DNA from: a virus
DNA: 64,000 nt
Virus record (IMG/VR): IMGVR_UViG_3300045988_125828
Coordinates: 4,999-68,998 of that record
Direction: 5' to 3' (one strand)
In this document: in pieces, positions 50,250 to 50,620 of the stretch
Layout of the letters: the number at the start of each line of letters is the position of its first letter
Position numbering within the stretch: position 1 is the first letter of the stretch
The notes under the pieces: model-generated
Told to the model about the DNA's origin: nothing
What the model saw: only the letters and a program-made list of their open reading frames with translations
Database searches by the model: none
Program-made: the position numbers and the translations under genes

Positions 50250-50620
50250 AGATACACCGTTCTTTGACGTATTGATGTAGATATTAAGAATATAAGTCTT
50301 TGTTGAAACTGTATTCTTATTCTAATATTAATCAAGGAATTACGTATAGCGGAAACGCCGAAACTACGTATAGGATTGGTTATCGTGATTGTTTCTTCGC
50401 ACCGAAATGTCCTACGGTAGAGAGTATGCGGTTTGGGCGTCCGTATCGCAAGAAACAACAGGTCATAAAGACAACATAAGCGTCCGATACAGTCTTAAAT
50501 CGGTATAAAGTATGCGGTGGTAATGAAAGGCGGCCGTACACGCTTATTATATATATTCTCGTGGCTCACCGTAAGGCGAGTGGTAAGGCTTAACATCGGA
50601 ACGCTCACGAGAACAATTAC
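50250..50620 (+). ncRNA. candidate large structured RNA adjacent to the tRNA-like gene
   Basis: About 370 nt with no credible ORF and at least 8 nested helices. Two are capped by GNRA loops on the plus strand (GCG-GAAA-CGC 50349-58, CTCACC-GTAA-GGCGAG 50565-80). G-T pairs occur only in the plus-strand reading. Confidence 0.4.

Follow-up and report, generated by a model that had tools for sequence, protein, structure and literature searches.

A modular structured RNA behind a BoxA-like box in temperate Bacteroidales phages, possibly a nut-like antitermination leader

What is the nature of the hairpin-rich region at positions 50250-50620 (plus strand) of a 64,000-nucleotide (nt) stretch of the viral record IMGVR_UViG_3300045988_125828, the whole of which was analysed here and is called the window? 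An earlier note, made from the letters of the window, had described a hairpin-dense, RNA-like unit of about 370 nt directly 3' of a tRNA-like element in a Bacteroidales phage. Our comparative analysis bears out this character and setting: the region is a real, conserved, plus-strand, highly folded non-coding RNA. It is, however, not a single unit but a mosaic chain of separable modules rather than one RNA domain (Table 1). The chain starts with a BoxA-like box, and this start directs the interpretation towards antitermination or mimicry of ribosomal RNA operons (rrn) rather than towards a giant RNA of the GOLLD/ROOL type. We tentatively read the RNA as an rrn-mimicking, nut-like antitermination leader in the rightward early operon of a temperate Bacteroidales phage, a reading that we favour while rating its chances at a little below even.

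Relatives were collected from IMG/VR in three steps, in which the proteins flanking the RNA region yielded 16 loci, a conserved 16-mer about 75 additional true homologues, and a gapped module-2 pattern (AAGCGTCC...CACGCTT, anchored on the core of helix P1) brought the total to at least 140 phage contigs. Relative loci carry labels such as L001, L013 and L085, and L163-L282 denote Bacteroidales rrn loci, Bacteroides-type rRNA operons taken from metagenomes for comparison. The homologues among the matches listed form 17 clusters at 96% identity, the most distant being about 60-70% identical. Among GenBank phages, blastn, a check that the earlier note had proposed, found no homologue of the RNA, and the carrier phages are missing there too; a scan of the GTDB species representatives with the module-2 pattern gave one chance match only, in an Acidobacteria metagenome-assembled genome.

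The plus strand of 50250-50650 folds to -104.9 kcal/mol (z = -2.83), a stability equalled by none of 100 dinucleotide shuffles, whereas the minus strand (z = -0.37) is matched by 36 of 100. The G-U pairs that the earlier note had noticed on the plus strand alone are indeed frequent and conserved (GU:24, GU:19 and UG:35, for example, in the alignments), and as only that strand accounts for these pairs, and for the U-A to C-G exchanges in the loop-loop pairing, the element is to be read as plus-strand RNA. It had also been called free of open reading frames (ORFs). This holds in the sense that the region is non-coding, but not literally, since mechanical ORFs of 53-101 amino acids (aa) exist on both strands. 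We regard these as non-coding because single-base insertions and deletions break them among close relatives, and because substitutions between relatives fall in compensating pairs rather than in codon patterns. All five helix sets that had been picked out by eye are present where the earlier note placed them, and the conservation and covariation it asked for are found in abundant compensatory base changes across the homologues. Beyond the two paralogous modules described below, the region has no iterons or direct repeats.

The conserved core spans 50259-50547, about 290 nt, to which the 3' module adds 58 nt. Covariance models were built on close relatives and then used to align the distant ones, so that the covariation figures given here come from alignments fitted to models, with many sequences being close kin. 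In the P2 hairpin (alignment A6), both sides have changed in five of the six outer and two of the three inner pairs, giving the variants TACGGA/TCCGTA, TATGGA/TCCATA, ATCCG/CGGAT and GCA-GAAA-TGC. Its GAAA tetraloop (50352-55) remains a GNRA loop in most relatives, in line with the earlier note; the second loop claimed as GNRA, GTAA at 50571-74, is not kept, with relatives showing ATAA, GCAA, CTAA or bigger loops in its place. Module 1 is a three-way junction built from the helices P3 (TTGTTTCTT/AAGAAACAA), P3a (ACCG/CGGT) and P3b (ATGCGG/CCGTAT), both sides of which have changed in 9/9, 4/4 and 5/6 pairs, respectively. Its two hairpins are joined by a loop-loop pairing of GUCC (50409-12) with GGGC (50435-38), for which variants GUCC/GGGC, GUCU/AGGC and AUCU/AGGU were found by eye, the loop columns being only partly aligned. 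Taken together, P2 and module 1 have 96.4% of alignment cells paired, against 80.1% after shuffling and 31-53% in slid controls, and 25 of their 28 pairs are double-changed. Even the otherwise divergent L013 retains a junction of the module-1 type.

Module 2 is clearly a paralogue of module 1, as is seen on comparing CGGTAGAGAGTATGCGGT with CGGTATAAAGTATGCGGT. Its helices include AAGCGT/ACGCTT, the GTATGCGG..CCGTAC hairpin and a CCGAT/ATCGG hairpin, the last of which was absent from the earlier list; its junction UAUAAA is nearly invariant, and its loops pair as GUCUU (50492-96) with AAGGC (50527-31), an interaction that RNAalifold recovered independently. With this pseudoknot included (alignment A4), 99.2% of cells are paired, against 94.4% after shuffling and 34-52% in slid controls, and six pairs are double-changed. 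Among the varying pairs are 19-41 (GC:24, UA:7, AU:4) and 55-76 (CG:20, UA:14), and within the pseudoknot 29-68 (UA:19, CG:14, UG:2). The invariance of the P1 core AAGCGT/ACGCTT is uninformative, because it was fixed by the search pattern. Two further long-range pairings were considered and discarded: one between the box and GUCAUAAAGA at 50463-72, which is not conserved among relatives, and one that would join AUCGGAACGC in the 3' module to module 2 on its 5' strand, which shows no covariation with changes in P2.

Two parts of the chain are less constant. The AT-rich hairpin behind the box lies in a stretch (50255-50340) that folds with z = -3.0, and its helix is present in the window as the earlier note had it. 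It is not a common feature of the family, whose members have an unrelated AT-rich hairpin (L001 type), an A-rich spacer (loci with DUF2693-FD, see below), an inverted copy or none. In L085 (1097-1389) the hairpin at this place is the exact reverse complement of the version in L001 (2614-2907), which by its sequence is a DNA-level inversion of a palindromic segment. The 3' module (fold z = -2.9), in turn, is separable. Its helix TTCTCGTG/CACGAGAA and inner hairpin have 93.5% of cells paired, against 88.2% after shuffling and 34-53% in slid controls, with three pairs double-changed. It abuts module 2 in 46 loci, as in the window, and stands 400-3000 nt further downstream in about 20 others, right after inserted protein-coding cargo such as a 108-aa ORF in L017 or a DUF6948 protein and a 233-aa protein in L039. 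Cargo-bearing loci have an additional folded module, M3, directly after module 2; it reads CTCCCTTC-CCCGTCAAATTCGGG-CACGC...GCGTT-GAAGGGAG (L017:6281-6345, L039:473-535 and, in similar form, L114) and folds with z = -2.1. Whole parts are also swapped between phages: L013 has kept little beyond the tRNA-like element, a junction resembling module 1 and the 3' module, the L030 type has replaced the 5' half, and the L114 type has module 2 in another setting. Small genes vary at fixed junctions between module 2, the 3' module and the hairpin-U5 downstream (50620-51050 and relatives), where a Cys-rich 73-aa ORF (50650-50871) is missing from L009 and L011 and an 800-bp insert is found in L003, L004 and L006, so that the interval and its equivalents look like a hot spot for accessory genes. 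An integron-like attC role of the 3' hairpin was rejected, as there is one copy per locus only.

How does the box bear on function? It is the most conserved unpaired element of the RNA, and it is common to divergent family members and to the structurally unrelated DUF2693 RNA, the first 20 nt of whose Rfam consensus it matches. It precedes module 2 in 127 of the 143 phage loci among the matches listed, and with up to two mismatches it occurs twice in the window, where 0.01 matches would be expected by chance. As the box resembles the published BoxA consensus, GYTCTTTAANA (PMC5725501), we compared it with rRNA operons. In 23 of 30 long-enough Bacteroidales rrn loci, the motif GATCTTTGACATATTGA is found in the 16S-23S spacer, after tRNA-Ile, tRNA-Ala and a hairpin, and a related leader motif, AG[T/A]TCTTTGAAA, is present in 99 of 106 16S leaders, 160-310 nt upstream of an anchor pattern near the 5' end of 16S. 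Phage box and rrn motifs agree with the BoxA consensus as far as GYTCTTT. From their position and conservation, the leader and spacer motifs are candidates for the Bacteroidales BoxA. BoxA in general, as PMC3177189 and PMC2800207 describe it, is the binding site of NusB-NusE that starts processive antitermination. Beyond the box the RNA has no similarity to rrn loci, and an origin from rRNA was discarded. Two promoter readings of the box were likewise abandoned: its spacing to -7/-10 motifs is inconsistent between variants, as judged against the Bacteroides promoter (-33 TTTG / -7 TAnnTTTG), and a scan for sigma-70 promoters, of which it might have been the -35 element, remained at chance level. 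Just 5' of P2, a conserved CAAGGAAUU (50333-50341, plus strand) is complementary to the core of the box, UUCUUUG, and this complementarity persists in most variants without clear compensation.

The second match in the window lies on the opposite strand, about 135 nt past the stop of a leftward 121-aa gene, downstream of two leftward genes, and faces the RNase H gene at its 3' end. Of the 94 relatives with enough upstream sequence, 13-14 have this site. A rightward box accompanied by one on the opposite strand recalls the arrangement of nutL and nutR in lambda.

The carrier is a temperate gut Bacteroidales phage, with genes for a tyrosine integrase (44169-45302, minus strand), a YqaJ-domain exonuclease, KilA-N/ANT antirepressors and a HicAB pair, and with a portal protein 51% identical to that of the Bacteroides LoVEphage. 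The HicA toxin and HicB-like antitoxin are encoded at 53335-53980 (plus strand), within the early region. The RNA has the same orientation as its flanking genes. Between 46700 and 51300, the plus strand has only two TAnnTTTG motifs, at 46805 and 49267, both in near-identical TATAGTATCTTTGCA contexts, and in relatives, including distant ones, a single -7 motif lies 400-1000 nt upstream of the box, with one to three small ORFs between, and almost never inside the RNA. The two promoter-like stretches that carry these motifs, 46790-46815 (ATATTATAGTATCTTTGCA) and 49250-49280 (ATTTTATAGTATCTTTGCA), are near-identical and have a palindromic ATATTATAG/CTATAATAT sequence close by; they are possibly repressor-controlled early promoters. 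Downstream, the hairpin-U5 is found in about two thirds of the relatives with enough sequence (62/89 in a first count), 31-1975 nt beyond the 3' module. That the RNA could mark an attP site was rejected, since 5 kb separate it from the integrase gene and it is flanked by early genes on either side.

Standard models do not recognise the element directly upstream of the box as a tRNA. ARAGORN in its default mode called no tRNA genes, and the Rfam tRNA model found no match even at E <= 10; with the intron option, ARAGORN called a cloverleaf with a 38-nt insertion at position 32/33. A transfer-messenger RNA was excluded by the tmRNA mode of the same program, which found none. All relatives that have the element keep an insertion of 34-43 nt and a covarying anticodon stem, and we know of no bacterial splicing route for such tRNA inserts. 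In the window, the insert contains a CCGG, and this could base-pair with the region of the CCG anticodon. L114, a different phage, has another tRNA-like gene (about 11916-11998), in which 12 nt are inserted at the corresponding position. Five relatives (L120, L123, L125, L131 and L157) have DUF2693-FD (RF02926; 51.6-73.4 bits) in place of the tRNA-like element, just upstream of the box or, in L123 and L157, about 150 nt upstream; the window holds no match to this 49-nt motif, for which at least 44.5 bits are required. The anticodon region of the tRNA-like element (TTCCGGTTAGCGA, 50190-50225), compared with L008, L024 and L131, resembles hairpin 2 of DUF2693-FD (CCGgUAGCGAGAAcCGG), in which a 7-bp stem abuts a hairpin with a 5-bp stem and a 7-nt loop, much like an acceptor stem and a T arm. 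Both may be mimics of tRNA that share an evolutionary origin.

Table 1. Elements of the RNA and its surroundings in the window.
Feature	Position	Strand	Description
Bacteroides-type -7 promoter motif TATCTTTG	49267..49274	+	Motif match; likely promoter of the operon of the RNA
tRNA-like element	50135..50248	+	'tRNA-Arg(CCG)' cloverleaf; 38-nt insertion on the 5' side of the anticodon loop
BoxA-like box GTTCTTTGACGTATTGA	50259..50275	+	17 nt; 15/17 identical to the rrn spacer motif GATCTTTGACATATTGA
Variable AT-rich hairpin	50276..50332	+	TAAGAATA 50285-92 / TATTCTTA 50312-19
P2 hairpin	50341..50370	+	TACGTA/TACGTA around GCG-GAAA-CGC; conserved asymmetric internal loop
Module 1, three-way junction	50389..50458	+	P3 50389-97/50450-58; P3a 50401-04/50415-18; P3b 50426-31/50441-46
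Module 2, paralogue of module 1	50476..50547	+	P1 50476-83/50540-47; P2 50484-88/50499-503; P3 50510-17/50534-39
3' hairpin module	50556..50613	+	Outer stem TTCTCGTGG/CTCACGAGAA; inner hairpin; conserved unpaired UGGUAAGGC..CAUCGGAACGC
Terminator-like hairpin + U5 (GCCGGGTGGTCTGAGAAGATAGTCCGGTTTTT)	50887..50918	+	Ahead of recombination genes; weak fold
Second BoxA-like site GATCTTTGAAATGTTGA	48364..48380	-	2 mismatches to the spacer BoxA consensus

The RNA appears to imitate the layout of the host rRNA-operon spacer, with a tRNA, a BoxA and a long structured RNA in succession. We infer a scheme of Nus binding, antitermination, module roles and processing. Transcription would begin near 49267 and cross three small genes, one of them for a Cro/Xis-like helix-turn-helix (HTH) protein, before reaching first the tRNA-like element, then the copy of BoxA (50259-75) and then the folded RNA. 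On the model of rrn leaders and lambda nut sites, the nascent BoxA would bind the host NusB-NusE(S10) and nucleate a complex of Nus factors on RNA polymerase. The polymerase would thereby gain resistance to Rho over about 0.5 kb of untranslated RNA and pass stop signals, such as the hairpin-U5 at 50887-50918, into the variable cargo and the recombination genes, which encode a 301-aa protein of unknown function besides the YqaJ-domain exonuclease. The phage-specific part of the site would consist of the GNRA hairpin and the tandem kissing-loop junction modules, which, by analogy with boxB or put, might tether the complex through binding to polymerase or to a protein. The tRNA-like element, replaced in some relatives by DUF2693-FD, could serve as a handle of the RNase P/Z type that separates the RNA from the upstream mRNA. 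Speaking for antitermination are the match of the box to host rrn motifs, which is unlikely to be due to chance, the conservation of the box among divergent family members and in DUF2693, the lambda-like layout of the second box, the conserved position in the operon, the candidate stop signal downstream and the strongly supported fold.

Several observations weigh against such a leader. After TCTTTGA the phage box has a C where 16S leaders mostly have an A, and the minimum-energy fold of the window pairs the box with CAAGGAAU at 50333-41, which could hide it. A subgroup of the L053 type has a degenerate box, TTCATTGG, and in the L114 type no box lies within 420 nt of module 2. As a terminator the hairpin-U5 is a weak candidate (z = -1.1), the gene immediately upstream of the RNA varies between relatives, and Pfam and PHROGs scans of the flanking proteins found no RNA-binding or N-like candidate. 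Promoter, terminator and co-transcription are motif-based, and neither a BoxA of Bacteroides nor a nut site in their phages was described in the literature that we searched. Finally, an ornate RNA of about 290 nt far exceeds the needs of any known nut or put site.

An alternative worth serious thought is that the folded RNA is a stable non-coding product made in the manner of rRNA. We consider this unlikely, though a real contender. A cut by RNase P/Z would free an RNA starting at BoxA, the box would just secure completion of a long untranslated transcript, as BoxA does at rRNA operons and CRISPR arrays, and the modules would act in trans, for instance on a defence factor or on a protein of host or phage that they bind or sequester. 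The order of tRNA, BoxA and long structured RNA is nearer to the rrn spacer than to a compact nut site, there are two interchangeable tRNA-like handles just 5' of the box, and RNAs that function in their own right typically have an elaborate fold with pseudoknots and near-invariant junctions, as seen here; moreover, phages exchange the modules as whole units (L013, L030 and L114 types). However, we found neither a promoter nor a terminator dedicated to such an RNA, which has no known target or partner, and its 3' end would be undefined in cargo-bearing loci, where the cargo separates module 2 from the 3' module. A stable product and antitermination can coexist. A bolder version of the latter, which we hold to be decidedly unlikely, is that these phages have a complete rRNA-operon mimic of their own, made up of a tRNA-like processing handle, a host BoxA and the tandem kissing-loop RNA, in which the ornate RNA itself, without an N-like protein, renders polymerase resistant to termination or senses a signal that gates early transcription. 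If true, this would be a new class of RNA and a new route of phage transcription control, set in a phylum whose Nus/BoxA biology is essentially undescribed, and it would give DUF2693 and DUF2693-FD a function.

Could the tandem junctions be aptamers instead? Purine-type aptamers are built from a closing helix with two kissing hairpins, and aptamers also occur in tandem, for example in the glycine riboswitch. Modules 1 and 2 show just such a closing helix with two hairpins joined loop to loop, module 2 around its near-invariant UAUAAA junction, in a fold backed by covariation, and by sensing a small molecule or ion they might control how the genes just downstream are transcribed or translated. 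We judge this improbable, since no Rfam riboswitch model matches either in the whole window, scanned against the 4227 families of Rfam 15 at the gathering threshold, or in 49900-51100, scanned at E <= 10. Furthermore, the downstream genes are highly variable or absent, unlike riboswitch regulons, no expression platform (a terminator/antiterminator pair) follows module 2, and cargo-bearing relatives have M3 ahead of the cargo.

Still less probable is an element acting as DNA in replication, packaging or recombination (an origin, a packaging site or a hot spot), the conserved inverted repeats of which would be used by proteins or for the exchange of cassettes. Variable cargo at fixed junctions between conserved modules and the exact inversion of the AT-rich hairpin in L085 would suit it, and the box could in principle bind a protein as DNA. 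However, the compensatory changes keep pairing rather than sequence, the minus strand folds no better than shuffled sequences, iterons are lacking, and the box, read in the direction of transcription, corresponds to a signal that rRNA operons use as RNA.

That the RNA is a member or counterpart of GOLLD or ROOL, the large phage RNAs to which the earlier note had likened it, is barely credible: although it is phage-borne, highly structured and adjoins a tRNA-like gene, neither Rfam scan matches these families, and its core of about 290 nt stands in an operon, led by BoxA and made of small shuffled modules. The same two scans returned no group I intron, for which the earlier note had proposed a search, and no tmRNA, RNase P or 6S RNA. 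The RNA is not represented by a family of Rfam 15, as nothing reached the gathering threshold over the window.

How, then, does the RNA compare with known systems? GOLLD and ROOL have in common with it the association with phages or prophages, often near tRNAs, and a complex fold. It is, however, smaller, modular, inside an early operon rather than free-standing, and BoxA-led. ROOL averages 581 nt according to PMC5737381, and the single fold of about 580-800 nt expected of these families contrasts with a core of about 290 nt and a separable 3' module.

Much closer is DUF2693 (RF02956), which, like DUF2693-FD (RF02926), is a candidate RNA of Bacteroidales phage-like regions, as Weinberg et al. 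2017 (PMC5737381) describe them. In the window Rfam gives a single signal, a match to DUF2693 that with 15.2 bits stays below the threshold and is confined to the unpaired 5' box; the best relative, L131, reaches 22.7 bits, against a gathering threshold of 81.3 and 145-168 bits for true members. Both RNAs have the 5' box (consensus GaUCUUUGACAUAcUUGAUA in DUF2693, GTTCTTTGACGTATTGA here), the order of box, spacer and first hairpin, and a similar phage context. True DUF2693 RNAs continue with an A-rich spacer, one hairpin and a four-way junction, in place of which the RNA described here has a GNRA hairpin followed by a tandem pair of three-way junctions with kissing loops. It is thus not a member of DUF2693 or of another Rfam family, but occupies the DUF2693 slot behind the same box. 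In the literature searched, we found no statement that the 5' box of DUF2693 or DUF2693-FD is a BoxA.

The nut sites of lambdoid phages (boxA and boxB) are alike in that a BoxA-like element lies early, downstream of a small HTH gene next to the putative promoter, followed by a GNRA-type hairpin and by a candidate stop signal ahead of the delayed-early genes, with a second box on the presumed divergent leftward transcript. They differ in that the hairpin here is not a few nt from the box but about 65 nt (from 50275 to P2 at 50341) to 75 nt (to the GAAA loop), that the structured part is about ten times larger, that no N-like protein is recognised, and that the host belongs to the Bacteroidales, for which the literature searched gave no description of Nus or BoxA. 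HK022 put is a factor-independent, cis-acting antitermination RNA without boxA, in which two simple stem-loops together span about 70 nt; the resemblance lies in an early phage RNA of two tandem structured units that could act directly on polymerase. The antitermination elements of rRNA operons (leader and spacer boxA; rrnTAC) have a near-identical box and the same succession of tRNA, box and long structured untranslated RNA. In the phage, however, the downstream RNA is without rRNA or rrn leader/spacer similarity beyond the box, and the 'tRNA' has a 38-nt insertion and fails standard tRNA models.

Viewed against these systems, new is a structural variant among the BoxA-led RNAs of phage early transcripts, while DUF2693 and DUF2693-FD were known to hold equivalent slots. 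The tandem kissing-loop three-way junctions constitute a compact new RNA fold and a worthwhile structural target. Temperate Bacteroidales phages are abundant in the human gut, and the landmarks of the RNA, carried by at least 140 IMG/VR contigs, flank sites of accessory-gene exchange and may help to locate cargo such as possible anti-defence genes. On the host side, the comparison provides a candidate rrn BoxA for the Bacteroidales in its leader and spacer forms, for which the literature searched held no description. If the box is a working BoxA, this family would acquire, together with DUF2693 and DUF2693-FD, the hypothesis of a Nus-dependent antitermination in these phages.

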